The notes below the pieces were generated by a model. That model saw nothing but the letters and a program-made list of their open reading frames with translations. It did no database searches and was not told the origin of the DNA. The position numbers and the translations under genes were made by a program. A stretch of DNA of 64,000 bases from Cyanophyceae cyanobacterium. GTDB lineage: Bacteria; Cyanobacteriota; Cyanobacteriia; Cyanobacteriales; JBHJGN01. Within the stretch, counting starts at the first letter, position 1. Every line of letters begins with the position of its first letter. The DNA lies in contig JBHJGN010000009.1 of NCBI GenBank assembly GCA_050331735.1, forward strand, positions 1 to 64,000, given 5' to 3'. Of the stretch, positions 23,270-47,920 are shown piece after piece.

Positions 23270-23302
23270 AGAGTAGGAAAATATTTTGAGGAACTTGTGA
23301 GG
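23270..23302 (-). promoter_or_regulatory. Direct-repeat box A plus -10 (hsp20-atpT-N-ATPase)
   Basis: CCTCACAAGTTCCTCA-N11-TACTCT, with an extra partial repeat (CAAGTT) upstream. Confidence 0.85.
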
Positions 23303-23341
23303 AACTTGCTGGCAGATGAGGAGACGGTTCGTTGTCTAGAG

Positions 23342-24091
23342 TTACTCAGGGGCGCTGGTGGAACGAAAGCGTTTTTGAGCCATCAGTTCCTCTACATACC
23401 GATACCATGCTGCTATTCCCTCCCCGGTTCGTGCCGATACTTCAAACAGAGTTGCTTGGGGCGACATTGTTTGCAGATGAGAAACCGCCAGTTCCCGCTC
23501 GCACCCAACTGCTTCAGCGATATCAATTTTGTTGAGAATGGCTACCTGGGCCGTTTTAAAAGCTGTTGGATATTTGAGCGGTTTGTCTTCTCCCTCGGTG
23601 ACCGAGAGCAGCACTACGCGCCGCTCTTCTCCTAAATCGTAAGCCGCTGGACACACTAAATTACCAACATTTTCGATGATTAATAAATCGAGGTCGTCGA
23701 GGTGAAGTTTGAGCAGGGCTTGGTTCACCATCTCTGCGTCTAAGTGACAAATGTTGCCTGTTGTTACCTGGACCGCAGATGCCCCTAGTTTTTGCAGACG
23801 CTGGGCATCGTTCTCAGTGGCGAGATCGCCAATAATGGCTCCGATCCGCCACTGACTGCCACAGTCGGTTAGCATTCGTTCGATCAGGGCTGTCTTCCCT
23901 GAACCAGGAGAGGATAAGAAATTGAGAACCGTTAAGCGTTTGGTTTGGAACAGCCGGCGATTCTGTTGGGCAATTTTGTCGTTTTTGGCCAGGATGTCTT
24001 GGTGAACGTCAAGGTGATACTGAACGGGGCGAGCTTGTTTCCCCCGCAGAGCGACGCGCTCAGTAAGGCCACAGCCGCAATCTTGGCACAT
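23342..24091 (-). CDS. hypB: Hydrogenase nickel incorporation GTPase HypB
   Basis: CQDCGC, SPGSGKT, CHLDA, ENVGNLVCP and NKID motifs. Confidence 0.95.
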   Translation of the reverse strand: MCQDCGCGLTERVALRGKQARPVQYHLDVHQDILAKNDKIAQQNRRLFQTKRLTVLNFLSSPGSGKTALIERMLTDCGSQWRIGAIIGDLATENDAQRLQKLGASAVQVTTGNICHLDAEMVNQALLKLHLDDLDLLIIENVGNLVCPAAYDLGEERRVVLLSVTEGEDKPLKYPTAFKTAQVAILNKIDIAEAVGCERELAVSHLQTMSPQATLFEVSARTGEGIAAWYRYVEELMAQKRFRSTSAPE

Positions 24092-24092
24092 C

Positions 24093-24434
24093 TCAAGATA
24101 CCTCCAGCGAAGCTAGCTCTAATTCTCTGCCCTGGAGAATTTGAGTGCTAATGTGGTGGCACTGGGGGCAGGCATGACACCAACCAAAAGGGTGAAACGT
24201 CAGGCAGCAGTGAGGACAATAGCAGGTTACCGGAATGATTTCCAGCTCTAGCTTAGCTCCCTGGGCGATAGTTTCTCTGACAACGACATCGAAGGCAAAT
24301 TTCAGGGCTTCCGGGACGACTCCCGATAGTTCCCCCACGTTAATTTTCAGGCTATGAATCTGCGTTGCCCCCTGATTTTTAGCTTCGGTGAGGGCAATAG
24401 CTAAGGCGTTTTTCATGAGGCTGACTTCATGCAT
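24093..24434 (-). CDS. hypA: Hydrogenase maturation nickel chaperone HypA
   Basis: MHE start, two CxxC, GREL. Confidence 0.95.
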   Translation of the reverse strand: MHEVSLMKNALAIALTEAKNQGATQIHSLKINVGELSGVVPEALKFAFDVVVRETIAQGAKLELEIIPVTCYCPHCCLTFHPFGWCHACPQCHHISTQILQGRELELASLEVS

Positions 24435-24439
24435 CGATT

Positions 24440-24937
24440 TTAAGCACTCGGTTTGGTGGCTGCTAAATTTTGGGTCGGCTGCTCCCTGCCTTGGATGAGG
24501 TAGACAATCTGCTTAAGAGCTTGGGCCATGCCTCGTCTCGCTGTGGGAGAGAGGCGATCGCCTAGCTCAAAATTTGTACCAGGGATTAGTACCCACCAGG
24601 CGGTTGGACAGCGATTATACGCGGTACAGGTGAGGGCTAGTAGCGCCCAAGGGTTACTGGCATGACTGCTCATCATTTTTGAGGAGGAAAAAGAGAGACG
24701 AAAAACCTGAAGGTTTTCGCGAGGCAAAGCGGGGTAGGCATCGACAAAAATGACCTGTTGAGCCGCCGCGATCTCGGCTGCCAATTCTGGCGTAAGCTGA
24801 CGGACAGGAAGCGAGCGCACATCGGGTAAACTCCACTCGTCGAGAACCTGCGCTACCCGTACGCCAACGCCATCGTCGCTGCGTAAATTGTTGCCGTAGC
24901 CGATTACCAGAATTGGAGATGGAGGGGGGTTGGTCAC
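24440..24937 (-). CDS. hoxW: Hydrogenase maturation protease
   Basis: VIGYGNNLRSDDGVG, QLTPEL and IFVDA motifs; within the hox cluster. Confidence 0.85.
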   Translation of the reverse strand: MTNPPPSPILVIGYGNNLRSDDGVGVRVAQVLDEWSLPDVRSLPVRQLTPELAAEIAAAQQVIFVDAYPALPRENLQVFRLSFSSSKMMSSHASNPWALLALTCTAYNRCPTAWWVLIPGTNFELGDRLSPTARRGMAQALKQIVYLIQGREQPTQNLAATKPSA

Positions 24938-24941
24938 GTTA

Positions 24942-25069
24942 TCCCAATTAGAAGAAGGAATGAAAGACTTGATGAGTTGGAGAACAGGAAAGCACAGCGA
25001 GTCTTCTCCTTGGAACCTCCAGCTCTTGGTTGGGCTGGAGAACTATCTGACTACTTTCGATCAATGGCG
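24942..25069 (+). mobile_element. MITE copy 2, degenerate (TTA target duplication)
   Basis: TCCCAATTAG...AATGGCG ends, TTA on both flanks, internal similarity to copies 1 and 4. Confidence 0.75.
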
Positions 25070-25135
25070 TTAGCTACTGGTCGGAAGCTCGTTGCCGGGA
25101 TTACTCTTAAGTTTCTTCTCTAGCGTCACCTCCTT

Positions 25136-25168
25136 AAACTACCAAGAAAGTTTGAGGAAGTTGTGAAG
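25136..25168 (-). promoter_or_regulatory. Direct-repeat box B plus -10 (hoxW-hypAB)
   Basis: CTTCACAACTTCCTCA-N11-TAGTTT. Confidence 0.8.
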
Positions 25169-25185
25169 CCGGCGACGCTAGTGTT

Positions 25186-26724
25186 TTAGGAGGAAAAGCG
25201 TCCTCCGTCTCGTACTTGCTCAAGAAAATTGGATTCAGTCCATGCCTCTGCGGTGTTGACAGTCACGACATAGGGCTGTTCTGCTTCTGTAAAAGATTCG
25301 GCGGCTGCCTGTTGAGCGGCTAACAAATCCGCCGTGGCATCGGAAATATCTTGGCGGTGGTGAAGGCGATTTCTGAGAACCTCTACAGGGGCGGTGCAGT
25401 AAAGAATTTGGAGCGGAAAGGATTGCGCTTGAGCGAGAGCGATCGCTTTTTGCCGCCAAACGCAGCGGTCAAACTTAGCATCTAAAATTACCGGATATCC
25501 TGCACCAGCAAGCATGTTTCCTAGTTCGAGCAAGCGAGTATAGGTTCTGTCGTTCATTGGCGGGGTATAGAGTTCACTGCCACCCCGTTGATGCACGGGG
25601 ATTCCCGCTAGATGTTTGCGAACCGCATCTGAACGAATCTGAATAGCTCCCGTACGCCGAGCTAGCCATTGAGCGACAGTGGATTTACCCGAACCAGACA
25701 AACCGGACATCAAGATAATTTTGCCCCGATTCATCTTTGTATAAGACCAGGCCAAACGATAATAGTCAGCAGCGGTTTGAGTCACTTGTTGTGCCTCCTC
25801 TTCGTCTAAGAGAAAAGAATTGACCTTTGCCCTGACGTAGGCTTGACGACAGAGATAGAACGGAAGTACCTGTAGTCCTTCCCAATCTCCCGTTTCTTCG
25901 AGGTAGGAGTTTAAAAACGCATTGCCGAGATTGTGTCCGTGGCGAGCCTCCAAATCCATAACGGTAAAAGCCACATCGTACATCACATCGACAAAGCGAA
26001 AGGCTTCGTTAAATTCAATGCGGTCAAATAGCTGGATTTTGTTCTGCCAAAAGCAAATATTTTTGAGATGCAGGTCGCCGTGACACTCTTTGATCTTGTC
26101 GGTTGCTCGGCGCTTTTGAAATAGCTCCTTCTGAGTCAGAAAAGTATCGGTAAACTGCTTGGTTTCTTGATACTGCTCGTCTGTTTGAACAATGCCGATG
26201 TATTTTTGAGTCTGTTGATAGTTTTCTTCGATTGACTCTCGAATTTTACTCACTTTCCCAAAGCGACGGATATAGTCGTTCGTTTGAGCTTGAGCATGAA
26301 AGTTGGCGACGATTTTGCCTAAATCATTCAGATGAGCTTCCGTCAGCTTTCCCTGCTCAAACATATTGAGGAATAAGTTTTCTTGGGGAAACTGGCGCAT
26401 TTTAAGAACGTACTCTACTGCTTCTCCCGTTCCTCCTAAAACAAACTGCTCTCCCTGTTTGGCAATGGGTAAAACCTCTAAATAAAGAGCGGCTGCCACC
26501 TTCTGGTTTATCTGGAGCTCCTGCTCGCAGAAATGCTTTCGCTGAGCCAGTGTGGAATAGTTCAGAAAACCAAAGTCAACAGGCTTCTTAAGCTTATAGG
26601 CGTAGGCTCCTGTCAAGAAAACGATGGAGGCGTGGGTTTGAATGACCTCAATCTTCTCAACGGAATGGGGGTAAAAATGAGGACGGTGCATCTGCTCAAC
26701 TAAAGCAGAGAGATGTTCAGCCAT
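25186..26724 (-). CDS. Aminoglycoside-phosphotransferase-like / AAA_33 kinase fusion (Rv2004c-like)
   Basis: QTHAS, YKLKKPV, ECHGDLHL.NI, D.IEFN; second domain has GLSGSGKST and RSDAVRK. Confidence 0.85.
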   Translation of the reverse strand: MAEHLSALVEQMHRPHFYPHSVEKIEVIQTHASIVFLTGAYAYKLKKPVDFGFLNYSTLAQRKHFCEQELQINQKVAAALYLEVLPIAKQGEQFVLGGTGEAVEYVLKMRQFPQENLFLNMFEQGKLTEAHLNDLGKIVANFHAQAQTNDYIRRFGKVSKIRESIEENYQQTQKYIGIVQTDEQYQETKQFTDTFLTQKELFQKRRATDKIKECHGDLHLKNICFWQNKIQLFDRIEFNEAFRFVDVMYDVAFTVMDLEARHGHNLGNAFLNSYLEETGDWEGLQVLPFYLCRQAYVRAKVNSFLLDEEEAQQVTQTAADYYRLAWSYTKMNRGKIILMSGLSGSGKSTVAQWLARRTGAIQIRSDAVRKHLAGIPVHQRGGSELYTPPMNDRTYTRLLELGNMLAGAGYPVILDAKFDRCVWRQKAIALAQAQSFPLQILYCTAPVEVLRNRLHHRQDISDATADLLAAQQAAAESFTEAEQPYVVTVNTAEAWTESNFLEQVRDGGRFSS

Positions 26725-26742
26725 AGTTCTTCGGGGTAATCG

Positions 26743-28194
26743 TTAATCTCGCCAGACTTCATGAACTACTTCTCCCGCTGCATCGACGAGCTGAATATGC
26801 AGCGGCATTTGACCGGCGGCGTGAGTTGAACAACTCAGGCACGGATCGAAAGCGCGAATGCCTGCTTCAACTCGGTTCAGCATCCCTTCAGGAATTTGGG
26901 GACCGCGCACGAAGTGTCGAGCAATCTGGGCGACAGTGCGATTCATGGCTAAATTGTTTTGACCGGTGGCAATAATTAAATTTACCTTCTGCATCAAGCC
27001 GTTGTCATCGACCTGATAGTGATGAAAGAGAGTTCCTCTGGGAGCTTCGCTCACGCCGACTCCTTCTCGTTGATTAATGCCCGCATCAGCCCGTAAGCGT
27101 CTAGACAGTAACTCTGGATCGTCTAGCATTAGTTCAACCCGCTCAATGGCTCCCAATATTTCGATCAAACGAGCATAGTGATAGAAAAAGGAAGCATTAA
27201 TCGTGCCGTTCCCGCGGTCTCTGAACTCTCTAAGTTCCCGATCTGCTAGCGGCATCCCAATCCGGCTACAGATATTAAGGCGAGCCAGCGGACCCACCCG
27301 ATAGATGCCGCTATCGAGTTGACAGCGATCGCCGGCTGAGGCATAGCCGAGGGGTCGGTAGTAGGGAAACTTGAGATAGGACCAGGGTTCAACCGCCTCC
27401 GCAATATAGTCCTGGTAACGAGTAGGATCTAGGCGATCGGCAATAATGTTGCCACCGCTATCGACAAACCGAATTGTCCCGTCGTAGTGTTCCCACTCGC
27501 CATCCTTGCCGACCAATCCCATAAATAGGCTGGGAAAATTCCCCAAGGTTTGCGTTTCTTTTTCGTAGTTTCTCAGTAAGCCCTTAAAACGCTCCAAAGC
27601 TTTCAGTGTCGTCTGTTTCACTTCGGGTGTCCAGCTTAACAGGTGAGTGCGTCCTCCTTCGGTCAGCGGTTCCCGGACTCCCCCCGGTACTGCCCAAGCG
27701 GGATGAATCTTGCGACCTCCTAGCTGTTCAATGACTTCCTGTCCGAACTGCCGCAGGCGAATGCCGCTGCGAGCTAGTTCTGGCTCGGCAGCCATCAAGC
27801 CAAATACGTTACGGGAGGCCGGGTCGCTATCCATGCCCAGCAGCAAATCTGGAGCGCTGAGATGGAAAAAGCTGAGGGCATGGGACTGGATAATTTGCCC
27901 TAAATTCATCAGGCGGCGCAGTTTTTGAGCAGCCGGGGGAATGGTAACAGAAAGAAGGCGATCGCCGGCTTTTGCCGAGGCGAGGAGATGACTTACCGGA
28001 CAAATCCCGCAGATGCGGGCCGTGATTCCCGGCATTTCCCACAGAGGACGACCCTCGCAGAACTTTTCAAATCCCCGAAATTCTGTCACGTGGAAGCGGG
28101 CGTCTTCTACCTGTCCGCTATCGTCGAGGTAGATGGTAATCTTGGCATGACCTTCAATCCGCGTCACCGGATCGATAATAATTTTCTGAGCCAT
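26743..28194 (-). CDS. hoxH: Bidirectional NiFe hydrogenase large subunit
   Basis: TRIEGH, RICGIC and DPCLSCSTH plus a C-terminal extension; ATG 28194 follows GAAGGA. Confidence 0.95.
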
Positions 28195-28340
28195 ACAGCT
28201 TAGTCCTTCGTTGTTGGTAGCGATAAGAACACGCTCGATTAGTCGAGACGGTTTTCCCCTCACGACTGACTCTTAGTTCAACCCAATGTCGTCGCTGTGG
28301 CTGTTGAGATAGATTTGAGCGTGAATAGCCCAGAGGAACC

Positions 28341-28600
28341 CTATACAGGTAGGTCAGCATACCAGGGGTCATCGCGCTCCATCGCTTTTGCCTCTGGATA
28401 CTCTTGACAGTATTCCTCAAAGCTCGTTTTTCCTAAGTTTTCTGCTCTGCGGTCACGATTCCGTAGCTATCGTTCTCGTTCAGGCGCTCGACGATCAGAG
28501 AACTTAAGCCCAACTCCCGCATCAGTTTCACCGCTTCAGCAACGGAGGCAAAGCTGCGAATGGCGATCGCTTTTTTTGACATGATATCTGCTGCTTTCAT
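28341..28600 (-). pseudogene. CBS-CP12 gene remnant (internal deletion/frameshift)
   Basis: First CBS half MKAADIM...YGIVT ends at a stop (28433). Another frame gives the CP12-like tail RAENLGKTSFEEYCQEYPEAK..., stop at 28341. Confidence 0.7.
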
Positions 28601-28625
28601 CGTGATTTCTCCAACGTTGTTATTT

Positions 28626-29120
28626 CTATCCACTACACCAAGCGTCATACACATCAGTCGGCAGTACTTCTAATGGGCTCTCTTCCCGCTCCAATTCTTC
28701 TAACTGCTTGAGCAGAGAATGGGCATTTTTAAACTGGAGTTGTGCTCTAAAATTGTCCAGAGCGAGAAGATCGGTAACGGAAATGATGCCGAGGAGCTTA
28801 TCTCTAACAACTGGTGCTCGGCAAATACCAGCCCTAGTAAACAAACCAGCGATATACTCCACTGCCAGACCGGGATTGACGACAATGCAGGGCTTAGTCA
28901 TCACTGCGCCGACCTTCACTTGCTGAGGATTCGCTCCAATGGCCACGACTTTTTGAATAATGTCCGTTTCGCTAACAATGCCATAAGCATCAGCTTCATT
29001 GATACGATTAACAATTAAAGCCCGTACTCCTGAACGCTTCATCAACTGAGAAGCTTCGGCAACGGTGGCCGCTCCATCGATTGTTACAACTTCTCTAGTC
29101 ATAATGTCTGATGCTTTCAT
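28626..29120 (-). CDS. CBS-pair protein (CBS-CP12 family-like, reduced tail)
   Basis: MKASDIMT, YGIVSETDI, MTKPCIVVNP and LLGIISVTD; acidic tail ending YDAWCSG. Confidence 0.85.
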   Translation of the reverse strand: MKASDIMTREVVTIDGAATVAEASQLMKRSGVRALIVNRINEADAYGIVSETDIIQKVVAIGANPQQVKVGAVMTKPCIVVNPGLAVEYIAGLFTRAGICRAPVVRDKLLGIISVTDLLALDNFRAQLQFKNAHSLLKQLEELEREESPLEVLPTDVYDAWCSG

Positions 29121-29244
29121 GTCTTTCTCCTTCGCTTCTTCAGTAGCGATGAGACTGGTACTGGAGGGAGCGCATTTTTGAATAGTTGCTCCGGTTCAGC
29201 CAGGAATTTAACTATCTATCAGAAGCAGATCGACTACTATGCTT

Positions 29245-29277
29245 AGAGTAAACAAACAACTTGAGGAACTTGTGAGG
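29245..29277 (-). promoter_or_regulatory. Direct-repeat box C plus -10 (CBS-hoxH unit)
   Basis: CCTCACAAGTTCCTCA-N11-TACTCT. Confidence 0.85.
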
Positions 29278-29422
29278 TGGTCCGGGCTTAGTGAGGGAAA
29301 AGATGCGCCTAATAAAAATGCTCTGCTCGAGTTCCGTCGTGTCTACATTCGCGCCTAGCACCGCTTCAGGAAGAGCTGCGGAAACTAGAGCTCCTTGGCT
29401 TGGCCCTACATTTCGCAGGTTA

Positions 29423-29571
29423 TACCAATTAGAAAGAGTCATGAGAGACTTGAGCCGTTGGGGAAAAGGGGAAAGGGTCAGGGGGAAAGGTAAACACAGC
29501 CAGCCTTTCCCTTTTAAGAGCCAACTCTTTGTTAGTGAGGAGAACTATCTCACTCCTTTCGGTCAATGGTA
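29423..29571 (+). mobile_element. MITE copy 3 (149 bp, TTA target duplication)
   Basis: TACCAATT...AATGGTA with TTA flanks; near-identical to copy 5 in inverted orientation. Confidence 0.88.
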
Positions 29572-30381: not shown

Positions 30382-30414
30382 AAGGTAAAAAAAGTGTTTG
30401 AGGAACTTGTGAAG
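30382..30414 (-). promoter_or_regulatory. Direct-repeat box D plus -10 (dioxygenase)
   Basis: CTTCACAAGTTCCTCA-N11-TACCTT. Confidence 0.85.
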
Positions 30415-30460: not shown

Positions 30461-30471
30461 ATAATTAAAAA

Positions 30472-30902: not shown

Positions 30903-31262
30903 CTATTCTTTTTTTTCAATCACCAGGGTTAGATGCGCCACGAGCGCCCCAATCGCCCCCAGAGCGGCTATCAGGGGAAACATCACTGCACCGACCGCAC
31001 CACCAACGACTCCAATAGTCAACGGAATTTCAAGGAGGATGTGCCCTTCTTCATTTTTAAGAATAATGCGACGGACATTTCCTCGGTGAATCAGCTCTTT
31101 TACCTTGGCAACGAGGGCATCGCCACTGACTTTAAATTCCTCGACGCTCACTTGAGAGGGACGCTCGACTTCAGATTCTACAGTTGATTCAATGTCTTCC
31201 GCTTTTGTCACTTCTGTTTGATGATCGGGTTTCAATGATTCATTCATCGGTTGATTCTCCAT
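30903..31262 (-). CDS. DUF4342 domain protein
   Basis: EEFKVSG..LVAKVKELIH.GNVRRIILK and EIPLT.G motifs. Confidence 0.8.
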   Translation of the reverse strand: MENQPMNESLKPDHQTEVTKAEDIESTVESEVERPSQVSVEEFKVSGDALVAKVKELIHRGNVRRIILKNEEGHILLEIPLTIGVVGGAVGAVMFPLIAALGAIGALVAHLTLVIEKKE

Positions 31263-31306: not shown

Positions 31307-31846
31307 TTAGCCAAATTTGATTTGCTGTCCCGTCAAATCAGGAATTTTAGCCGCCAGCAAAGGCTCTAGGACTGCCCTAATCTTTTGGGCAGAAGGGGGG
31401 CAACCGGGCAGATAAATGTCAACAGGAACGAGCGCATGGACCGGCTGAACTCGCTGGAGGAGAGAAGGGACAATGCCGGGTGCTGAGGGAATTTGACCTT
31501 GACAATCAGCGTCAATATAACAACGTTGCAGAACGGACTCGCTACTGCCGAGGGGATTACGGAGAGCCGTCACATTGCCCGTCACGGCACAGTCACCGAA
31601 CGAAACTAAAGTTTCAGAGCGATCGCGGACTTGATAAATGAGCGCGAGGTGGTCTTCATTGGCCACGGCTCCCTCGACTAACACCATATCCACTCCTTCT
31701 GGATAGTCTTTGATGTCGGCGAAGGGGCTGTAAACTAAATCAACTTGGGCTGCTAAGTCAAAGAGCCACTCATCCAAGTCAAGAAAAGACATATGACAGC
31801 CAGAGCAGCCCCCAAGCCAAACGGTTGCCAATTTAATTCGGGCCAT
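31307..31846 (-). CDS. hoxY: Bidirectional hydrogenase small subunit
   Basis: WLGGCSGCHMS, GDCAVTG and PGCPP motifs. Confidence 0.95.
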   Translation of the reverse strand: MARIKLATVWLGGCSGCHMSFLDLDEWLFDLAAQVDLVYSPFADIKDYPEGVDMVLVEGAVANEDHLALIYQVRDRSETLVSFGDCAVTGNVTALRNPLGSSESVLQRCYIDADCQGQIPSAPGIVPSLLQRVQPVHALVPVDIYLPGCPPSAQKIRAVLEPLLAAKIPDLTGQQIKFG

Positions 31847-31960: not shown

Positions 31961-32677
31961 TCAAAACACCCACTGCTGTTTTTGCCTTGCTGTCGCAATA
32001 AATTCTAGCTTGTCGCGGTCATGCTTCATTTCAGCTACCGTAGAACCGCGATGAAAAATTGCTCCTGTGGGGCAAGCGTTGACGCATTTACCACAGGAAG
32101 TACAGCTAGAGGCAGTTCCCCAAGGCTGATTTAAGTCAGTAATGACGTGAGACTGCCAGCCTCGCCCTGCCATATCCCAGGTATGAGCGCCTTCAATCTC
32201 GTCACAGACGCGGACGCAGCGCGTACACAAAACGCAGCGGTTATGGTCAATACCAAAGCGAGCGTGGGAAATATCGACAGGACGGCTAGGAAACTGATAG
32301 TTTAACCGAACGTGATCCATTCCCATCTCTATCGCTAAGTCTTGCAGCTCGCAGTTACCGTTCGACACGCACACTGAGCAGATATGATTACCTTCAGCAA
32401 AGAGCATCTCGACAATGAGACGACGGTATTGTTGCAGTTGTGGCGTATGGGTTTGTACTTCCATGCCTTCTGCCACTTGAGTAACGCAAGCTGGTTGCAG
32501 CTTGGGGCTGCCATCAATTTCGACTAGGCACAGCCGACAGGCTCCGACGGTAGACACGCCTTTGAGATAGCACAAAGTCGGAATGTGAATATCTGCATCC
32601 TGCGCCGCTTCTAAAATGGTCTGCTCTTCGCGGGCGCTGATTAGGCGATCGCCAATGGTTAACGTTTTTACCGCCAT
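31961..32677 (-). CDS. hoxU: Hydrogenase diaphorase Fe-S subunit
   Basis: IPTLC, GACRLC, HICSVC..CELQ and two 4Fe-4S motifs. Confidence 0.95.
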
Positions 32678-32737
32678 TGCAACTCCACTATTTTTCTCCA
32701 ATTACAGGCAACTAGTGTGTTGACTGTTTCTACTGTC

Positions 32738-32770
32738 AAAGTAGAAAAAAAGAATGAGGAACTTGTGAGG
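32738..32770 (-). promoter_or_regulatory. Direct-repeat box E plus -10 (hoxUY)
   Basis: CCTCACAAGTTCCTCA-N11-TACTTT. Confidence 0.85.
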
Positions 32771-32912: not shown

Positions 32913-33461
32913 TTAATATAACAAAAGCTTATCAATAGCAATCTCGACATGAGGAAAGGCTTGAGGCGTTACTGTTCCAGAATGATATTTAACCATTTGT
33001 AAGTATTTGTCTTTGCTGGGCTGAGTGTGAATAATTAACTGCTTATTTTTTAAGTCGATTACCCAATATTCAGAGATTCTATTGCGAGCATAGGTTATAA
33101 CCTTCTCTTCCAGGTCTTTTTTGAGTGTTCGTTGGGACACTTCTATCAACCAATAAATATCTTCTGCATAGGGATGATGAGTCCGATAAATAGTTAAGGG
33201 CAATCTAACAATAGCAATATCTGGTTCGGGTTCGGAATTGTTTAAAGTGATGGGATGCGATTCTCTGACATGAGCTAATCCAGATAGCTTGTTTCGCAGA
33301 TAAATAACGATACTCTCGTTAGTAAAGCTGTGCTCGACCCCCTCTGGACTCATCTCAACGATATCTCCTTCCAACAACTCCACCTTTTGCCCTTCTAGCA
33401 CTCCAGAGTCCACCAGTTCGTGCCATTTATCTATCGACCATTTGTAAGTTGCCCAGACCAT
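32913..33461 (-). CDS. Uma2 (DUF820) family endonuclease-like protein
   Basis: VELLEG.IVEMSP, SEPEPD, LIEVS and EYWVIDL motifs. Confidence 0.88.
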   Translation of the reverse strand: MVWATYKWSIDKWHELVDSGVLEGQKVELLEGDIVEMSPEGVEHSFTNESIVIYLRNKLSGLAHVRESHPITLNNSEPEPDIAIVRLPLTIYRTHHPYAEDIYWLIEVSQRTLKKDLEEKVITYARNRISEYWVIDLKNKQLIIHTQPSKDKYLQMVKYHSGTVTPQAFPHVEIAIDKLLLY

Positions 33462-33531: not shown

Positions 33532-33564
33532 CCTCGTGAGTTCCTCAAATTACTTGCCTATGTA
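33532..33564 (+). promoter_or_regulatory. Direct-repeat box F, degenerate
   Basis: CCTCGTGAGTTCCTCA-N11-TATGTA; precedes broken ORFs. Confidence 0.6.
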
Positions 33565-37577: not shown

Positions 37578-38086
37578 GGGTTTGTGGTCCTATTTGATGT
37601 CGGCAGCTCGGATGAATCTCTGTTTTGACTCTCCTTCGTATCGATCGGGGGATGAACAATCAGAACCGAACAGTGAGCATTATGCTTGACGTAGTTACTA
37701 ACGCTCTCTAGAAAGGAACCCCTCACGTCAGCGCGATCGCGACTGCCGACAACGATGAGGTCGGCGTACCAAGTCTGGGCTAGAGCACAGATGCCGTAGC
37801 CCGGATCGCCAAAGGTTTGGGCCACTTCGGTCTGTACGTGGGCAGCCGTCGCTCTTTGGGCCAGCGATCGCAGTTGCTTGATGCTATGAGTTTGGAAGTT
37901 GTGCCATTGCTGTGGATAAGCTTTGAGTGGATAACGGTTAAGAGTCGGATAGTGCTTGTCTTGAGATGACAACACGTGAAGCAGCATCAGTCGGGCATGG
38001 CTTAATTTAGCTAGCTCTAACACTGGCTCAAAAATCACCTCACTGTCGGTGAAGTTGGCGATGGCGACCAGAATTTTCGTAAACAT
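37574..38086 (-). CDS. Universal stress protein
   Basis: KILVA, ADLIVVG and SVSNYVKHNAHCSVLIV; ATGA overlap with hoxE. Confidence 0.88.
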   Translation of the reverse strand: MFTKILVAIANFTDSEVIFEPVLELAKLSHARLMLLHVLSSQDKHYPTLNRYPLKAYPQQWHNFQTHSIKQLRSLAQRATAAHVQTEVAQTFGDPGYGICALAQTWYADLIVVGSRDRADVRGSFLESVSNYVKHNAHCSVLIVHPPIDTKESQNRDSSELPTSNRTTNP

Positions 38087-38149: not shown

Positions 38150-38182
38150 GTTATAGAGACATAAATTGAGGAACTTGTGAGG
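38150..38182 (-). promoter_or_regulatory. Direct-repeat box G plus -10 (usp-hoxEF)
   Basis: CCTCACAAGTTCCTCA-N11-TATAAC. Confidence 0.85.
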
Positions 38183-38209: not shown

Positions 38210-38242
38210 CCTCACAAGATCCCCAACTTTTGTTTTTAGGCT
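38210..38242 (+). promoter_or_regulatory. Direct-repeat box H plus -10 (divergent small genes)
   Basis: CCTCACAAGATCCCCA-N11-TAGGCT. Confidence 0.78.
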
Positions 38243-38515: not shown

Positions 38516-38616
38516 CAACTAAAGTTGCTGTGAAGGGTCTGCGAGTAGTTTGATCCGGTTGACGTTAGAGGCTGGGCTGAACGCTTGTGTTTGTATCACT
38601 ATACATAGGAAGCTTT

Positions 38617-38859
38617 ATGAACAACCTCACCAATTTTTTCAAGACTCTCCCTGTGGTGGGAAGAAATATGCCCTGGTGGGTCAAAATTCAAACAACTGCT
38701 CCTCAATGTACCTACTACTTTGGTCCTTTTGCTAGCGCTCGCGAAGCCAAAAACTATCGCCACGGCTACGTTGAGGATCTCGCTCAGGAAAAGGCTCAGG
38801 GAATTGCTGTCGCCATTGAGCGGTGTCAGCCCAAGCTGTTAACAATTTATGATGAATAG
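38617..38859 (+). CDS. DUF1816 family protein
   Basis: WWVKIQT..P.CTYYFGPF, GY.EDL..E and P..LTI motifs. Confidence 0.82.
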   Translation: MNNLTNFFKTLPVVGRNMPWWVKIQTTAPQCTYYFGPFASAREAKNYRHGYVEDLAQEKAQGIAVAIERCQPKLLTIYDE

Positions 38860-38940: not shown

Positions 38941-39474
38941 CTAGTCAGTCGCTTCTTGATTAGCAACGGCGCGGGTCGCCTCGCCGTCTGGCGAAGAGAT
39001 TCCTTGCACAACTAAGACGGAACAGGGAGCGTGGTGAACAACGGTATTACTAACGCTCCCTAACAGCATTTCGGTTAATCCCTGACGACCTCGACGACCG
39101 AGGACGATCAAATTGGCGTTCCAACTGCGGGCAGTATCAATAATTCCCTGACTGGGCTGGCCGAGAACGCAGTCATATTCTGCAACGACACCGCGAGCCG
39201 TTGCCTGTTGGGAATAATTTCTCAGCCAATCCCGGACTGTCTCCCTTTCCTCCTCAAGCCGCTGCTGGACGATCTGAGGGAAAGATTCGTAGGTTTCTCC
39301 TAGGGCGACACCTACATAGGGATAACTATGACCATACTGTTTTTCGTGTTCCCATTCCAGCACGTGAATCAGCATCAGCCGGCTGCCCATCGTTTGGGCT
39401 GTTTCTAAGGCTTGCTCAAAAATAGCGGGGGATAGAGATGAACGATCTAGCGCGACCAGTATCTTTTGCCACAT
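38941..39474 (-). CDS. Universal stress protein
   Basis: KILVALD and GRRGRQGL.E.LLGSVSN..VHHAPCSV motifs. Confidence 0.92.
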   Translation of the reverse strand: MWQKILVALDRSSLSPAIFEQALETAQTMGSRLMLIHVLEWEHEKQYGHSYPYVGVALGETYESFPQIVQQRLEEERETVRDWLRNYSQQATARGVVAEYDCVLGQPSQGIIDTARSWNANLIVLGRRGRQGLTEMLLGSVSNTVVHHAPCSVLVVQGISSPDGEATRAVANQEATD

Positions 39475-40068: not shown

Positions 40069-40593
40069 TCAAGATTCAGTCGGAGTTAACGCTGACTCCG
40101 GCTGCAAATCAGTCTCAGACAGGAGCGGTGGGTGAACGACCATCACCGAGCAAGGAGCGTGGTGAACGACATAGTTGCTGACACTGCCTAAAAGGAGCTC
40201 CTTCAGTCCGCTGAGTCCCCTTCTGCCAATAACGATCAGGTCCGCCTCCCAGTTAAGCGCCAATTCACAAATCTGGCGGCTAGGGTTGCCGTAAAGCTGC
40301 GTTGTTTCTGCGCTAACCCCGTTAGCGATGGCTCGCTCGCTAAAGGAGCGCAGCAGCTCTACCCCCTCTTGCTCAAATGCCTGCCACTGCTTCTGATAAA
40401 GCTCCTCAACTGCATCATTCAGGATGGGTTCGTAGTATCCAGCAACAATTCGAGTGGGGCTGTTTTTTTCTTGATTAGAGAGAACGTGCAATAGCATCAC
40501 GGTAGCTCCAGTGGCTTTGGCGATAGACAAAGCTTGTTCAAAGACAACAGTTCGGGTTGATGAGCGATCAATGGCGACTAAAATCTTTTTCAT
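40069..40593 (-). CDS. Universal stress protein
   Basis: KKILVAID and GRRGLSGLKELLLGSVSNYVVHHAPCSV motifs. Confidence 0.92.
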   Translation of the reverse strand: MKKILVAIDRSSTRTVVFEQALSIAKATGATVMLLHVLSNQEKNSPTRIVAGYYEPILNDAVEELYQKQWQAFEQEGVELLRSFSERAIANGVSAETTQLYGNPSRQICELALNWEADLIVIGRRGLSGLKELLLGSVSNYVVHHAPCSVMVVHPPLLSETDLQPESALTPTES

Positions 40594-40631: not shown

Positions 40632-40664
40632 GTTGTAAGTTAATAAATTGAGGAAGTTGTGAAG
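40632..40664 (-). promoter_or_regulatory. Direct-repeat box I plus -10 (usp unit)
   Basis: CTTCACAACTTCCTCA-N11-TACAAC. Confidence 0.8.
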
Positions 40665-41441: not shown

Positions 41442-41816
41442 TTAACTCATGGCTGCGGGCGAGCGGTCGTAGGTCGCTGCAAAACCAGAGGGGAACTCGC
41501 CTTGAATGCGGTTGCAGTAGCAGGATACATCTGCCTGTAAACCAACCTCGCTAGCTAATCGACTCAGCATCGTTAGCTCGCGGCGCTTGATAGCACGATG
41601 GTGCTTCATCATCAGACGGCGCGATCGCTCTTGGATTGAGGAAACGGCTGGAGGACGACTAGCCCTGCTCGTTTCCCCCGCATCTAGCTGAGGGGCGGCT
41701 TGACCTGTGCCAGAAAAAGCGAGGTCTACACCTCGATGCTTCCCCGTAGCTTTGATATCGCCTTGAGCAAGTTTCGGCGAATTGTCTTTATAACTAACGC
41801 TGCGATATTTGATCAT
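41442..41816 (-). CDS. gifB: IF17-like glutamine synthetase inactivating factor
   Basis: N-terminal YR.V.Y/HRGV (DUF4278-type) repeats plus IF7-like C-terminus R.LMM.HH..IK.R...MLSRLA.EVG...RIQG...TYDRS.AAMS; preceded by a glnA-type riboswitch. Confidence 0.75.
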   Translation of the reverse strand: MIKYRSVSYKDNSPKLAQGDIKATGKHRGVDLAFSGTGQAAPQLDAGETSRASRPPAVSSIQERSRRLMMKHHRAIKRRELTMLSRLASEVGLQADVSCYCNRIQGEFPSGFAATYDRSPAAMS

Positions 41817-41850: not shown

Positions 41851-41923
41851 GGCGCGTTCTTTTGGGAGGAGGTCTCCCTACTTCCGTTTCCTGGCAATAT
41901 TTGACTGGCAAAGAAATGAACGG
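41851..41923 (-). ncRNA. Glutamine (glnA-motif) riboswitch, variant
   Basis: CGUUC-AUUUC...GGAAAC-GGAAGUA-GGGAG(ACCUC)CUCCC-AAAA-GAACG-CGCC. P1/P2/P3 and GGAAGUA match; the usual GAAG reads AAAA. Confidence 0.8.
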
Positions 41924-41943
41924 TTTTTTCTCTCTCTACTTTT

Positions 41944-41976
41944 AGAGTAGACAAACAAGTTGAGGAACTTGTGAGG
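41944..41976 (-). promoter_or_regulatory. Direct-repeat box J plus -10 (riboswitch-gifB)
   Basis: CCTCACAAGTTCCTCA-N11-TACTCT; the riboswitch begins about 20 nt downstream of the -10. Confidence 0.88.
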
Positions 41977-42002: not shown

Positions 42003-42380
42003 CTATAGGGTCCAGGCGAGAATTTCCGCCATCTGCTTGGCAAGGGTCAGCGAATCAAACGGTTTAGTAATCACCCCCGTAGCGCCAGCTTCAAGAAAGA
42101 ATTGTCGGTCTGCGGTTTGGGCTTTGGCGGTTAAAAAAATCACTGGAATTTGCCGTACCTTTGAGTTATCCCGGAGCTTTTGGAGAGTTGCTACACCGTC
42201 AAGGTCGGGCATCATCACGTCTAGGAGAATAGCATCGGGCTGCTCGGCTTCAGCAACAGCAATGCCTTCTTGCCCCGAATTAGCGCTTAGCACTTCCCAG
42301 CCCGCCTGCATGGTTAAACCAAGTCGCGCAACGGCCTGAATGTCCTCTTCGTCGTCAATCAACAGGATACGTTTCGTCAT
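42003..42380 (-). CDS. Single-domain response regulator (receiver only)
   Basis: LLIDDE, LLDVMMP.LDG, FLTA and KPF motifs; no output domain. Confidence 0.92.
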   Translation of the reverse strand: MTKRILLIDDEEDIQAVARLGLTMQAGWEVLSANSGQEGIAVAEAEQPDAILLDVMMPDLDGVATLQKLRDNSKVRQIPVIFLTAKAQTADRQFFLEAGATGVITKPFDSLTLAKQMAEILAWTL

Positions 42381-43285: not shown

Positions 43286-43323
43286 CTGGATCGATAATTA
43301 TTGGGTGAACTAATCCTAAAACC

Positions 43324-46245: not shown

Positions 46246-46252
46246 CGACTGA

Positions 46253-46401
46253 TACCATTGACCGAAAGGAGTGAGATAGTTCTCCTAACTAACAAAGAGT
46301 TGGCTCTTAAAAGGGAAAGGCTGGCTGTGTTTACCTTTCCCCCTGACCCTTTTCCCTTTTCCCCAACGGCTCAAGTCTCTCATGACTCTTTCTAATTGGT
46401 A
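46253..46401 (-). mobile_element. MITE copy 5 (149 bp; flanks TGA/TTA)
   Basis: Reverse complement of copy 3 with about one mismatch by eye. Confidence 0.88.
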
Positions 46402-46468
46402 TTACTACTAACCGCAACCAGCTTTCTCCTTGCGATTTCTGATCGATTACGCCATCCCGAGCGACGCC

Positions 46469-47662
46469 ATGAAAAAAAACTTTATGTTCACCTCAGAGTC
46501 AGTGACTCAGGGACATCCCGATAAGCTATGCGATCGCATAAGCGACGCCATTGTAGACCGTCTCCTGCAACAAGATCCCTACGCCAGGGTGATCGCAGAA
46601 TGTGCGGTCTCCACAGGCATCCTGTTTCTCTCTATCCGATTTGAACCAAATGCCAATGTTGACTTTACCAACACCGCGAGACGAGTGATTGATGAGGTCG
46701 GATATGACCAGTCTTCGTTCAACAGCAAGACCTGTAGTATCCTAACCAGCCTGGAGGAATTGCCGCCAGACGAACAGCATAAATTTGATGCAAACCAGCT
46801 TGCTGACGACGAAATTGAGCAAATACCGGTCAAGAACCAAGTAACAATCTTCGGCTTTGCCTGTAATCAAACGGCTGCTTACCTGCCGCTGCCTATTTGG
46901 CTAGCGCACAAACTTGCCAGACGGCTGGATACGGTGAGGCGGGAGCAGCTTGCCTATCTTGCCCCTGACGGGCAAACTCAAGTAGGCGTTGAGTATCAAG
47001 ACCGCCAACCCACCAGAATCCACAGTCTCACAGTCGTTGCCAGTCAACAAGAATCCGCGTCTCCTCATCTAAAAACGCTCCGAGACGATATTTACAACGC
47101 CGTTATCCTCCCGGCCTTTGCTGATGAAGTTAATTTAGACGAGCAGACCAATGTGTTTATCAACCCTGACGGTCCCGTGATTCCTGGCGGTCCGGCGCTT
47201 CACTCTGGACTAACGGGCAGAAAGAACGGCATCGATACCTACGGAGAATATGCTAAACATAGCGGGGCGGCTCTCAGTGGAAAAGATCCGCTGCGCATTG
47301 ACAGGGTTGGGGCTTATGCGGCTCGTTATGCAGCGAAAAATGTTGTAGCGGCAGGATTAGCCGATGAATGCGAAGTTCAGTTGAGCTATACCCTCGGACT
47401 GGCAAGACCCGTCAGCGTTGAGGTGGAAACCTTTGGCACCGGCAAAATTCCTGAAGCAGACATTATTCAACAGCTCCAGCAGCACTTTGATTTTCGTTTA
47501 GCTGGCATTGTAAAGCAGTTCAATCTTCGGTTTCTCCCCTCCCTGAACAAAGGTTCCTTCTACCAGCAGCTTGCTACCTACGGTCACGTTGGCCGCATCG
47601 AACTTCAGCTTCCTTGGGAGAAAACGGATAAAGCTGATGTGTTACGCTTAGCCCGCCATTGA
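46469..47662 (+). CDS. metK: Divergent S-adenosylmethionine synthetase paralog
   Basis: FTSESV..GHPDK, DG.TQV, GLTGRK, SGKD..R.DR and YGH.GR present; both PROSITE-type signatures are altered. Confidence 0.8.
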   Translation: MKKNFMFTSESVTQGHPDKLCDRISDAIVDRLLQQDPYARVIAECAVSTGILFLSIRFEPNANVDFTNTARRVIDEVGYDQSSFNSKTCSILTSLEELPPDEQHKFDANQLADDEIEQIPVKNQVTIFGFACNQTAAYLPLPIWLAHKLARRLDTVRREQLAYLAPDGQTQVGVEYQDRQPTRIHSLTVVASQQESASPHLKTLRDDIYNAVILPAFADEVNLDEQTNVFINPDGPVIPGGPALHSGLTGRKNGIDTYGEYAKHSGAALSGKDPLRIDRVGAYAARYAAKNVVAAGLADECEVQLSYTLGLARPVSVEVETFGTGKIPEADIIQQLQQHFDFRLAGIVKQFNLRFLPSLNKGSFYQQLATYGHVGRIELQLPWEKTDKADVLRLARH

Positions 47663-47887
47663 GAGGATTCTGTATCCCCTCCCTGCAACATCGTTTCTCT
47701 CGTTACGAGGAAGAGGGCCGACTCTGCTGGAACTCGGTTTCAGATGGAAAGCAACACTCGCATTCCGCGAGTTTTAGACTCCCTTCAAACTCCCACGATA
47801 ACTGCTGTCGTACCCCAAGCGCGTTCTTAAACCACAAGGAACTCACTCGCTGCGCTCTAGAGGATGTCGCTTGTAGAGGAGCTACGT

Positions 47888-47920
47888 CCTCACAAGTTTC
47901 TCAAATTGTTTCTTTACTGT
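47888..47920 (+). promoter_or_regulatory. Direct-repeat box K plus -10 (small genes-ldh-ppsA)
   Basis: CCTCACAAGTTTCTCA-N11-TACTGT. Confidence 0.85.

Follow-up and report, generated by a model that had tools for sequence, protein, structure and literature searches.

A conserved tandem-repeat promoter box ahead of hydrogenase, fermentation and stress genes in cyanobacteria, with an RcaC-like protein as candidate regulator

A tandem direct repeat, TTCCTCA-N4-TTCCTCA, lies at a fixed distance from a -10 box ahead of hydrogenase, fermentation and stress genes in a cyanobacterial genome. The motif and its geometry are conserved throughout this genome and across the phylum, similar genes follow it elsewhere, and the box is linked to, and co-occurs with, one clade of response regulators. 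We consider it probable (roughly 60%) that the box serves as operator for a conserved cyanobacterial regulon, most likely bound by an RcaC-like regulator, through which genes for life in the dark or in anoxia would be co-induced; binding, activation, the wiring of a phosphorelay and the signal are what we infer from sequence comparison.

The switch for the cyanobacterial bidirectional hydrogenase and fermentation has been the object of two decades of study. As regulators of hox and fermentation genes, the accessible part of a 2026 review names only LexA, cyAbrB proteins, SigE and, in S. elongatus, RpaA (PMC13421787). A sharply defined operator, base-conserved across many families and placed before hox, hyp, PFOR, PFK and LDH genes, opens this question to direct experiments; a candidate regulator and, among relatives, a putative oxygen-sensing domain emerge from the same evidence. 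Moreover, the box promoter could probably serve as a portable, anoxia-inducible module for hydrogen and fermentation engineering, and small proteins of obscure role (USPs, Hsp20-like proteins, DUFs) would be placed in a low-oxygen programme. No description of the box or its regulator was found in the literature searched, and it is within that scope only that the regulon can be called undescribed, as the original prediction had done.

The box and its promoter geometry

Within the window (the whole 64,000-nucleotide stretch of DNA analysed), all eleven copies listed in the original prediction were recovered at their positions and on their strands, compared to a mean of 0.65 in shuffled sequences, of which 0/100 reached 11. 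Five copies are exact and six carry 1–3 mismatches; together they span 23287 to 47903, and the flanks outside this interval hold no copy at ≤3 mismatches, as had also been claimed. The copies sit between family-supported ORFs, each pointing at an ORF on the same strand, which agrees with their description as intergenic and facing the downstream gene, except that short ORFs without support (29212-29442, 47659-47922 and 23096-23635) overlap a few of them. Every TA-starting hexamer predicted was present exactly 11 nt after its 16-mer. The elements, together with a receiver gene considered below, are as follows:

23270..23302, minus strand: box 23287-23302 with -10 TACTCT 23270-23275; predicted promoter of the hsp20-like gene 22879-23202
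25136..25168, minus strand: box with -10 TAGTTT; predicted promoter of hoxW 24440-24937, hypA 24093-24434 and hypB 23342-24091
29245..29277, minus strand: box with -10 TACTCT; predicted promoter of CBS-domain genes 28626-29120 and 28433-28654, hoxH 26743-28263 and a gene for a 512-aa AAA_33 protein
30382..30414, minus strand: box with -10 TACCTT; predicted promoter of an MBL-fold / glyoxalase-II-like gene, 29640 to about 30325
32738..32770, minus strand: box with -10 TACTTT; predicted promoter of hoxU 31961-32701, hoxY 31307-31846 and a DUF4342 gene 30903-31262
33532..33564, plus strand: variant box CCTCGTGAGTTCCTCA with TATGTA, 3 mismatches, PWM score 21.3; before small ORFs 33886-34131
38150..38182, minus strand: box with -10 TATAAC; predicted promoter of USP 37574-38086, hoxE 37062-37577 and hoxF 35468-37072
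38210..38242, plus strand: divergent box with -10 TAGGCT; faces the DUF1816 gene 38587-38859
40632..40664, minus strand: box with -10 TACAAC; predicted promoter of USP 40069-40593, a 132-aa ORF and USP 38941-39474
41944..41976, minus strand: box with -10 TACTCT; predicted promoter of a glutamine riboswitch 41851-41924, then an IF7A-like gene at about 41442-41639
47888..47920, plus strand: box with -10 TACTGT; predicted promoter of a small IF7-like ORF 47992-48234 and the L-lactate dehydrogenase gene 48557-49612
42003..42380, minus strand: stand-alone CheY-like receiver, 125 aa; paralogue of the REC-only gene that follows fused RcaC-like regulators elsewhere

Membership of the weak 33532..33564 copy in the regulon is doubtful.

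T occupies both bases 5' of the 16-mer in most window copies and in 64–78% of 122 sites from other genomes, and this preference indicates that the true unit is TTCCTCA-N4-TTCCTCA. In these 122 sites the conserved span runs from -1 to +33, with sharp edges and unrelated flanks; since T at -1 and 0 and AATT at +17 to +20 are conserved in addition, the box is made up of two 11-bp units (22 bases), which can be written as TTCCTCAMAWK repeated twice, roughly at -45 to -24 ahead of a TAnnnT -10 box. The spacer CAAG is strongly conserved, which is atypical of OmpR-type sites and counts against the explanation favoured here.

In a genome scan with a PWM restricted to the 16-mer, 31 sites scored above 20, and 25 of them carried TAnnnT exactly 11 nt after the 16-mer, as opposed to 1.2% per position genome-wide and 4/38 among weaker matches, so the spacing is not due to chance. 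A -35-like hexamer (at least 4/6 matches to TTGACA, 16–18 nt from the hexamer) was found at none of the 34 genome sites, which supports the idea, put forward originally, that the repeats replace the -35 element in a pho-box-like layout. In the pho box, direct repeats of 7 conserved and 4 less conserved bases lie about 10 nt before the -10 box.

The scan for which the original prediction had called showed that the box is not local to this 25-kb stretch. About 31–34 strong sites on 8 contigs stand well apart from background: the score exceeded 20 at 34 of 11.1 million genome positions, and the next best was 16.7. Allowing ≤1 mismatch, 59 of the 400 other genomes scanned in the phylum contained the 16-mer, and most of these belong to one family; the reversed motif never gave more than one match per genome in the same scan. 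Among titled loci of a collection scan, 77/80 were labelled cyanobacterial, and the box occurred in 0/29 genomes of family f26 and 0/20 of family f7. The regulon extends over the whole genome and is shared by many cyanobacterial families.

The presence of numerous near-identical copies in a few regions could also suggest a dispersed repeat with no regulatory role, such as a miniature mobile element or a recombination site. We regard this as very improbable, since conservation ends sharply at the two edges with unrelated flanks, the copies face genes and are fixed relative to the -10 box, they precede orthologous genes across families, and neither inverted ends nor target duplications were seen. 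Alternatively, the 16-mer could be read by an alternative sigma factor as its -35-side element, and not be an activator site. Conservation does extend over the whole 35-bp element in the manner of a promoter consensus, taking in the CAAG spacer and the bases that directly follow the box, with ACAAGT at the canonical 17-nt distance from the hexamer. However, the -10 box is an ordinary TAnnnT, of the kind that group 1 and 2 sigma factors use, sigma region 4 has no need of the exact tandem repeat that forms the upstream part, and no sigma factor genes adjoining boxes were found in annotated loci; a sigma element therefore seems improbable.

Gene content of the putative regulon

In this genome, the box-associated genes comprise hoxEFUYHW, hypA-F, PFOR, pfk, ldh, acnB, Lon and ftsH, as well as 4–5 hsp20 and about 5 USP genes. 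Among 95 ORFs downstream of boxes elsewhere, USPs (9), Hsp20 (7), PFOR (5), radical SAM (4) and PFK (3) recur, followed by Fer4_12 (2), protoglobin (2), hoxE, hypA, D1 and glgP. Boxes precede orthologous genes across families, and the USP-hoxE promoter retains its box in many other genera. No phycobilisome genes were found among the box-driven genes of this genome or the 95 ORFs elsewhere. Given this content (USP, Hsp20, PFOR, PFK, radical-SAM, protoglobin, hox, hyp), the set looks like a regulon for fermentation, hydrogen and low-oxygen stress and points to dark or anoxic metabolism, the theme originally proposed.

The gene list of the original prediction needs adjusting. Hox, LDH and USP genes are box-associated, whereas the N-ATPase operon (atpD 21286-22668 onward) merely lies downstream of the hsp20-like gene 22879-23202 on the same strand, with no terminator found between the two, and ppsA (49886-52381), which comes after the L-lactate dehydrogenase gene, has a sigma-70-like candidate promoter of its own and may be transcribed separately. 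Likewise, a box does precede a gene for a glutamine synthetase-inactivating factor, called gifB in that prediction, but the protein scores as IF7A; the aptamer of the glutamine riboswitch begins 20 nt past the -10 box of this element, an arrangement in keeping with promoter function there.

An RcaC-like candidate regulator and its possible input

The box is likely bound by an RcaC-like response regulator (REC-wHTH-HPt-REC), given that genes of this type lie beside boxes in many genera, have a common recognition helix and track the box across genomes. Of the 19 Trans_reg_C proteins of this genome, only the two RcaC-like ones lie in a box cluster; the candidate is a 606-aa protein (contig C39:66747-68567) with the REC-wHTH-HPt-REC architecture according to Pfam, matching the expectation of an OmpR/PhoB-type regulator encoded elsewhere. 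In Nostocales-like genomes, a fusion joins the RcaC-like regulator to a FixL-like PAS histidine kinase, so that a single polypeptide comprises sensor, HPt, four receivers and DNA-binding domain. Pfam found the RcaC architecture in 13 such fused relatives, with REC-only partners alongside, and at 8/13 loci a box-driven USP(-hoxE) operon lies divergently next to the fused regulator. The window's receiver 42003-42380 is 53–56% identical to nine of these REC-only partners (other genome matches, ≤39%) and is likely a phosphorelay component.

A box lies ≤1.5 kb upstream of 15/55 RcaC-like genes, and 12 of these 15 fall in one clade (SH-aLRT 97); on the RcaC-like tree the box-linked label requires 7 changes, compared to 13.3 in shuffles, none of which (0/500) was as low. 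The helix AVRTHIKGLR is common to the box-linked clade and the C39 protein and is missing from the other 18 wHTH proteins of the genome, while a sister clade with the helix AVRTQIKGLR carries a variant box, CCTCACAAAATCCTCA, before its own gene (two cases). The clade-type wHTH (E ≤ 1e-44) was present in 33 genomes, with the box in 33/33, and in 0/341 box-free genomes (tables compared by eye), a co-occurrence dominated by one family (f6) in which the genomes are not independent; within f6, 9/9 box-free genomes also lack this wHTH. Four box-rich genomes, G104 (7 sites), G208 (3), G378 (3) and G038 (4), have only diverged RcaC-like proteins and no clade-type wHTH, the helix of the G104 protein being AVRAHIKGLR. 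The C39 candidate itself falls in a sister clade on a long branch, and the identity of its wHTH to the fused type (67%) is only on a par with that of a classical regulator on contig C38 (66%). Moreover, adjacency and co-occurrence would be equally expected if RcaC-like genes were merely members of the regulon.

Sensors linked to boxes include PAS, GAF and CBS kinases. In the fused proteins, the PAS adjoining the kinase core matches FixL heme domains (E 2.5e-21; FixL takes the first seven places among 16 PDB matches, with DosP next), and a PAS of this kind with the aligned (proximal) His is present in 21/23 long proteins. This fusion suggests that the input in Nostocales-like genomes is probably oxygen. 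For the genome studied here, in which no FixL-like PAS was found (best match 34% identity), the link to oxygen is borrowed from relatives.

Mechanistically, an OmpR/PhoB-class winged-helix response regulator would sit on the repeats as a head-to-tail dimer and recruit RNA polymerase by class II activation, as PhoB does at the pho box. The C39 product would receive its input through a multi-step phosphorelay made up of hybrid kinases encoded on the same contig and CheY-like receivers, among them possibly that of the window (42003-42380). Darkness or anoxia would then co-induce hydrogenase structural and maturation genes, PFOR, PFK, LDH and the glutamine synthetase-inactivating factor, along with a protective set of USPs, small Hsp20s, Lon and FtsH. 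Tentatively, and at somewhat less than even odds, we suggest an unnamed cyanobacterial anoxia master switch: a giant FixL-like haem-PAS kinase/HPt/four-receiver/OmpR-type protein, split into several genes in this genome, which would read oxygen or redox and act through one nearly invariant 22-bp operator on about 30 promoters for hydrogenase and its maturation, fermentation, glutamine synthetase shutdown and a dormancy-like protective set.

It is also conceivable, though rather unlikely, that a classical two-domain OmpR-family regulator binds the box (RpaA or one of 17 others, such as the RppA-like C38:14969-15634 or C71:27035-27724) and that the RcaC-like genes are its targets. The REC-wHTH part of the fused regulator is indeed 63% and 57% identical to the C38 and C71 regulators, respectively, as opposed to 50–52% to the genome's RcaC-like proteins. 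However, the C38, C71 and C69 proteins have recognition helices that depart from the clade signature, and no box-bearing stretch holds any of the 17 classical regulators. RpaA, the circadian output regulator, is described in the accessible part of one review as an OmpR-class activator of dusk/dark metabolism in S. elongatus, including hox and glycogen genes (PMC13421787), and its A/T-rich direct repeat (core T(T/C)CTTTA, 11-bp period) resembles TTCCTCA. The top FIMO matches to RpaA, however, are of the TTTCTTTA type and lack both the two conserved C's and the CAAG spacer (PMC10805033 supplement); AAGTTCCTCA was absent from the 9,845 RpaA-matrix FIMO rows for Anabaena promoters, and a derived RpaA-like consensus string matched 0/34 genome sites. 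Furthermore, RpaA is 92% identical between S. elongatus and Anabaena (PMC10805033), yet the box was not found in the f26 and f7 genomes or in the picocyanobacterial and other RpaA-holding families scanned. An OrrA-type regulator (REC + DUF3685), after the osmotic/dehydration master regulator of Anabaena, appears improbable as well. An OrrA-like gene (C32:29373-31070) does lie downstream of box C32:32725-32740 on the same strand, after a 144-aa ORF and a Fur-family gene, and OrrA controls hundreds of stress genes, with no binding motif given in the part of PMC9804601 consulted. Nevertheless, the OrrA-dependent mth, avaK, dps, hli, kat, sps and sus listed there were not among the box-driven genes found, and a tandem repeat of 11-bp period is the hallmark of winged-helix proteins bound as tandem dimers.

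Comparison with known motifs and systems

The RcaC-like regulator favoured here invites comparison with RcaC itself, whose L-box, TTGCACA-N4-TTGCACA, was reportedly described by Li et al. in 2008 for chromatic acclimation in Fremyella diplosiphon. The candidate shares the REC-wHTH-HPt-REC architecture and RcaF-like single receivers, and the L-box sequence has the same 7-N4-7 layout and 5/7 half-site bases in common with the box. However, the L-box string was found at 0/34 genome sites (a single half-site near 1/34), the RcaC system targets phycobilisome genes and not hox, fermentation and stress genes, and its input is the green/red cyanobacteriochrome RcaE, whereas the box-linked sensor, where fused, is a FixL-like PAS kinase. 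With E. coli PhoB and its pho box, and with SphR, the box has in common the 7+4 repeats at 11-bp period that replace the -35 element and a predicted winged-helix activator; it differs in half-site sequence, in a regulon unrelated to phosphate and in a candidate regulator that is a phosphorelay protein of at least four domains, PhoB having two.

As originally held, the box does not correspond to the cyanobacterial motifs compared: consensus strings for HLR1 and NtcA matched 0/34 and 1/34 genome sites. Those for ChlR and RppA, taken from the accessible part of PMC13421787, matched 0/34 each, as did the H box of Hrr1 (from the part of PMC13079394 available). According to the latter source, in the same part, Hrr1 of Nostoc flagelliforme is an OmpR-type protein that binds paired 11-nt direct repeats, AGGAATTTACM, targets sigB1, cpeR1 and wspA, and has homologues mostly from Nostoc (PMC13079394). 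The complement of this H box shares the TTCCT core and 11-bp period; the remainder of the repeat differs. None of the RpaA, RpaB, NtcA, L-box, ChlR, RppA and Hrr1 motifs matches the box.

The closest functional analogues are FixL-FixJ and mycobacterial DosS/T-DosR, in which a haem-PAS-like kinase domain is linked to a regulon, as here. The DosR regulon resembles the box regulon in its USPs, alpha-crystallin-type Hsp20, nitroreductase, PFK and anaerobic radical-SAM enzymes. In contrast, those systems use a FixJ/NarL-type domain and a palindrome, while an OmpR-type domain and a direct repeat are found here, and the fused regulator carries sensor, HPt, four receivers and DNA-binding domain on one polypeptide. 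If the tentative proposal of an anoxia master switch were true, cyanobacteria would have in this protein their own equivalent of FixLJ or DosR, and with it the direct activator of hox that has long been sought.

Box promoters in the window and its genome

With up to three mismatches allowed, the 16-mer CCTCACAAGTTCCTCA, the core of a TTCCTCA-N4-TTCCTCA direct repeat (hereafter the box), occurs 11 times in the window, between positions 23287 and 47903, compared with a mean of 0.65 copies in shuffled windows, none of which reached 11 in 100 trials. The observation is confirmed. Coordinates and strands of all 11 copies were exactly as originally predicted, the -10-like hexamer listed for each was found 11 nt past every copy, and the claim of an intergenic, gene-directed position held as well, all copies lying between family-supported ORFs and being aimed at an ORF on the same strand. 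One of them, at 33532, is a weak variant.

The genome-wide matrix scan that the original prediction had proposed set the box clearly off from background. Using a matrix trained on the 29 genome copies with at most two mismatches, 34 of 11.1 million positions in this genome (5.57 Mb, 99 contigs, 49.5% G+C) scored above 20 (31 of them above 25), and the next best scored 16.7. These 34 sites fall on contigs C5 (2), C9, whose positions 1-64000 are the window (11), C15 (4), C32 (3), C39 (6), C64 (6), C77 (1) and C49 (1). To avoid circularity, we rescored with the columns of the 16-mer alone; a TAnnnT hexamer stood exactly 11 nt downstream in 25 of the 31 sites scoring above 20, and TAnnnC in three more, against a TAnnnT background of 1.2% of genome positions and 4 of 38 weaker matches. 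A -35-like hexamer (at least four of six positions of TTGACA, 16–18 nt from the -10) was found at 0 of the 34 genome sites.

Box-preceded genes in the window
hsp20-like gene, then the N-ATPase operon (AtpR, alternate beta and epsilon subunits)
hoxW-hypA-hypB
CBS genes, then hoxH
MBL-fold hydrolase
hoxU-hoxY
USP-hoxE-hoxF
USP, 132-aa ORF, USP
41851-41924 (-), glutamine riboswitch (Rfam RF01739, 38.6 bits against a gathering score of 35), then an IF7A-like GS-inactivating factor
small IF7-like ORF, then ldh

Box-preceded genes on other contigs
acnB
ftsH
three more hsp20 genes
Lon-pentapeptide-USP
hypF-hypC
PFOR (nifJ)
DHODH-like gene with pfk-hypD-hypE
haem peroxidase and two RoxA-like cytochromes
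IF-1 paralogue
TrkA-domain protein
YkuD transpeptidase
DevBCA-like exporter
CheY-like receiver
Fur-family gene, then OrrA-like gene (C32)

Two units are candidate members only: the N-ATPase genes, with no terminator found between hsp20 and atpD, and ppsA, for which a separate sigma-70-like candidate promoter was found. The riboswitch in the leader of the IF7A-like gene begins 20 nt past the -10 of the box promoter, so that GS inactivation would be gated by the box regulator and glutamine alike. On contig C32, the box (C32:32725-32740, -) lies upstream of a 144-aa ORF, the Fur-family gene and the OrrA-like REC+DUF3685 gene (C32:29373-32740; L003:3374-6741 in the extracted locus), which suggests a link between the present regulon and an osmotic/dehydration regulator.

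The N-ATPase operon is broken at 18466-20545 (-), between atpC (20839-21252) and atpR (18077-18376), by a gene for a CPA2-type cation/proton antiporter (19325-20545) and a toxin-antitoxin-like PIN/ribbon-helix-helix pair (18466-19451). A Uma2-family endonuclease-like gene (32913-33461, -) and a DUF29 gene (34514-34942, +) separate hoxU-hoxY from hoxE-hoxF; a Uma2 gene also lies behind a regulator locus in another genome (L164:6998-7564). Directly after hoxH, in the same box-driven unit, 25186-26724 (-) encodes a 512-aa protein with a C-terminal AAA_33/zeta-toxin-like P-loop kinase domain.

Distribution across cyanobacteria

The original prediction had also proposed a scan of related cyanobacteria, and here the 16-mer of the box (at most one mismatch) was present in 60 of 401 sampled genomes of the phylum, that is, in 59 of 400 without the window's own. 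Most of these hold several copies, while the reversed control never exceeded one per genome. By family, box-bearing genomes made up 36/45 in f6, 7/25 in f3, 0/29 in f26 and 0/20 in f7. Scanning all species for the 16-mer followed by N11 and TAnnnT returned at least 121 stretches; among the matches listed, 77 of 80 titled loci were labelled cyanobacterial, the remaining three being two 'uncultured bacterium' records and one Fimbriimonadaceae MAG. The cyanobacterial loci listed include Nostoc, Calothrix, Anabaena, Fischerella, Rivularia, Leptolyngbya, Phormidesmis, Stenomitos, Chamaesiphon, Pleurocapsa, Xenococcus, Acaryochloris, a Thermosynechococcaceae MAG and a Gloeobacterales MAG.

For the genes downstream in other genomes, we took, at 95 boxes from the listed and earlier loci, the ORF that comes first downstream, defined as the longest one starting within 400 nt, a crude calling by which some of the 95 will be wrong. 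Pfam assigned USP (9), Hsp20 (7), PFOR N-terminus (5), BLH or PTP phosphatase-like (5), radical SAM (4), PFK (3), Fer4_12, which is NrdG-like (2), and protoglobin (2), with one each of hoxE-like, HypA, D1, Hsp70, glycogen phosphorylase and nitroreductase, and gave no family for 39 of the 95. Judged by these families, the functions that recur are fermentation and hydrogen metabolism, radical enzymes that work without oxygen, and the protection of proteins.

An RcaC-like candidate activator and its possible signal

The window's genome encodes 19 proteins with an OmpR-type winged helix, 17 classical two-domain regulators and two of the RcaC architecture (REC-wHTH-HPt-REC). Only the two RcaC-like proteins belong to a box cluster, on contig C39.

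Genes of the box cluster at C39:64-92 kb
779-aa hybrid kinase
C39:66747-68567, 606-aa RcaC-like regulator (REC-wHTH-HPt-REC), then a convergent box-driven 130-aa gene
1778-aa CBS-PAS-GAF kinase
box-driven CheY-like gene
C39:77423-79726, 767-aa RcaC-like regulator (REC-wHTH-HPt-REC plus a GGDEF domain)
1129-aa GAF-PAS hybrid kinase with a second CheY-like gene
box-driven Lon, peroxidase and hsp20 units

Searching the phylum with the 606-aa protein recovered RcaC-like paralogues nearly everywhere, box-free genomes included, so that the bare presence or absence of a full-length RcaC-like protein is uninformative. Many matches were the N-terminus of proteins of 875-1770 aa adjoining boxes, and in 12 of 13 box loci Pfam resolved these large regulators as REC-wHTH-HPt-REC-PAS(-PAS/GAF)-HisKA-HATPase-REC-REC. 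Next to the regulator, 10 of the 13 loci carry a REC-only ORF of 126-155 aa, as Pfam confirmed for 9 of them. Eight of the 13 have a box-driven USP gene that is transcribed divergently from the regulator and is followed in 6 of these 8 by an ORF of about 170 aa (hoxE-like by Pfam in 5), and this USP(-hoxE) promoter is the same as that at 38150-38182 of the window. One further locus has a box ahead of the regulator gene itself. The REC-only partners are 59-63% identical to C39:83481-83876 and 53-56% to window 42003-42380, other matches in the genome reaching at most 39%; the kinase half of a fused regulator best matches C39:81961-83466 (55% over 516 residues), the next match being to the 1778-aa kinase at its end (46%). 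What Nostocales-like genomes carry as one fused protein would thus correspond here to separate C39 genes, together with a receiver inside the window, as parts of a predicted phosphorelay.

We built a quick IQ-TREE phylogeny (SH-aLRT support only) of 55 RcaC-like N-termini, taken from the top matches of 20 box-free and 16 box-bearing genomes and from 13 loci chosen for adjacency. In this sample, which the choice of rows biases, 12 of the 15 genes that have a box no more than 1.5 kb upstream fell into one 25-row clade (support 97). The box label required 7 changes, compared with 13.3 when shuffled, a count as low as 7 arising in 0 of 500 shuffles. The 606-aa protein clusters with two proteins of 616-617 aa (support 98) that share its synteny, with a box-driven convergent gene just past the stop; this trio stands beside the 25-row clade in a joint 29-row group (support 92). 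The recognition helix of that group, the 606-aa protein included, reads (E/D)(E/A)AVRTHIKG(L/V)R; it differs in all 18 remaining winged-helix proteins that the genome encodes, the nearest being TVRTHITNLR. In a neighbouring clade with the helix AVRTQIKGLR (Q for H), 2 of 4 members examined have a variant box, CCTCACAAAATCCTCA, before their own gene (L185:2761-2776 and L191:2229-2244) at the usual spacing to the -10; recognition helix and box may therefore co-vary.

For co-occurrence, a 105-aa winged helix taken from one fused regulator was searched against the same 400 genomes, and the tables were matched by eye. A clade-type helix (E <=1e-44, at least 75% identity) was found in 33 genomes, of which 33 bear the box and 32 have at least two copies, and in 0 of 341 box-free genomes, including 0 of 9 from f6, an association that kinship among the genomes overstates. 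Box-rich genomes without it (copies in brackets) were G104 (7), G038 (4), G208 (3), G378 (3), G101 (9), G288 (6) and the window's own (17). G101, G288 and the window's genome have the sister type, G038 has a clade member below threshold, and G104 encodes a diverged 698-aa RcaC-like protein with the helix AVRAHIKGLR.

Alternatively, the box could be bound by a classical two-domain OmpR-family regulator, the RcaC-like genes then being mere targets. Mere regulon membership would be expected to give adjacency too, and the REC-wHTH part of the fused regulator is 63% identical to the classical regulator C38:14969-15634, above its identities to the RcaC-like proteins, which keeps this explanation alive. 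Linkage, co-occurrence and helix conservation make the RcaC-like clade the candidate activator.

In the fused regulators, the PAS domain beside the kinase core is similar to the haem domains of FixL (E 2.5e-21), and among its PDB matches the best 7 of 16 are FixL, followed by DosP. By BLAST and alignment, a FixL-like PAS is present in 21 of 23 long RcaC-like proteins (65-88% identity, with the proximal-ligand His of FixL aligned), and the two lacking it fall outside the clade. A LOV reading of this kinase PAS was rejected, since the LOV signature is absent from it. From this domain in relatives and the gene content, our best guess for the signal in genomes with the fused regulator is low oxygen. 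The window's genome has no FixL-like PAS (best 34% identity), and in the kinases linked to its boxes the domains are CBS, GAF and other PAS types; the input here may therefore be energy or redox state.

Known motifs and the anatomy of the site

As the original prediction had it, the motif does not fit HLR1, the L-box or NtcA. None of the 34 sites matched the consensus of HLR1, the L-box, ChlR, RppA, the Hrr1 H box or an RpaA-like string (0/34 each, with ChlR and RppA as given in PMC13421787 and the H box as given in PMC13079394), and one matched NtcA (1/34). The regulators receive no name from any curated NCBIfam model; RppA is the only model whose cut-off is reached by the N-termini of the two C39 proteins, and the RppA motif as published has no match in the box. 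Supplement 2 of PMC10805033 lists the RpaA matrix matches for Anabaena; those at its top are repeats of the A/T-rich TTTCTTTA type, and AAGTTCCTCA appears in none of its 9,845 RpaA-matrix rows. For OrrA, the accessible text of PMC9804601 gives no motif, and the OrrA targets it reports differ from the box genes. The region upstream of kaiBC, examined as an internal RpaA reference, was uninformative, showing no clear RpaA-like repeat and no box, nor was a box found near the kai genes; upstream of kaiA (C56:37228-37247), the direct repeat GTTACAATTCATTACATT resembles HLR1 and may be an RpaB site. Literature queries with the motif strings, their complement and TTCCTCA returned only unrelated primers, and neither the motif nor a regulon of such content was found in the literature searched, which covered few subscription journals.

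We aligned 122 non-redundant sites from other genomes, for which the search had fixed the 16-mer and TAnnnT and left the rest free. Conservation was absent upstream of -2 and past about +45. T is favoured at -1 (64%) and at 0 (78%), so that the upstream TTCCTCA is complete, and AATT follows the box at +17 to +20 (65, 69, 85 and 96%). With these flanks, the site consists of two 11-bp units, TTCCTCACAAG and TTCCTCAAATT, the second ending 7 nt ahead of the -10. In many genomes the -10 hexamer is followed by a mild but consistent A-rich stretch (+34 to +47) with a GTAGAG-like end, which may hold the transcription start and the first transcribed bases, or be an additional contact.

The pattern is genuine and extends further than originally seen: judged from sequence, the box marks a phylum-wide class of sharply delimited, activator-type promoters of genes for hydrogen metabolism, fermentation and low-oxygen stress. 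It gives a direct handle on the old question of what switches on the bidirectional hydrogenase and fermentation in cyanobacteria. The geometry of the site predicts a tandem winged-helix activator in place of the -35. Two 11-bp units before a -10 are also the layout of the pho box, which the present site shares.
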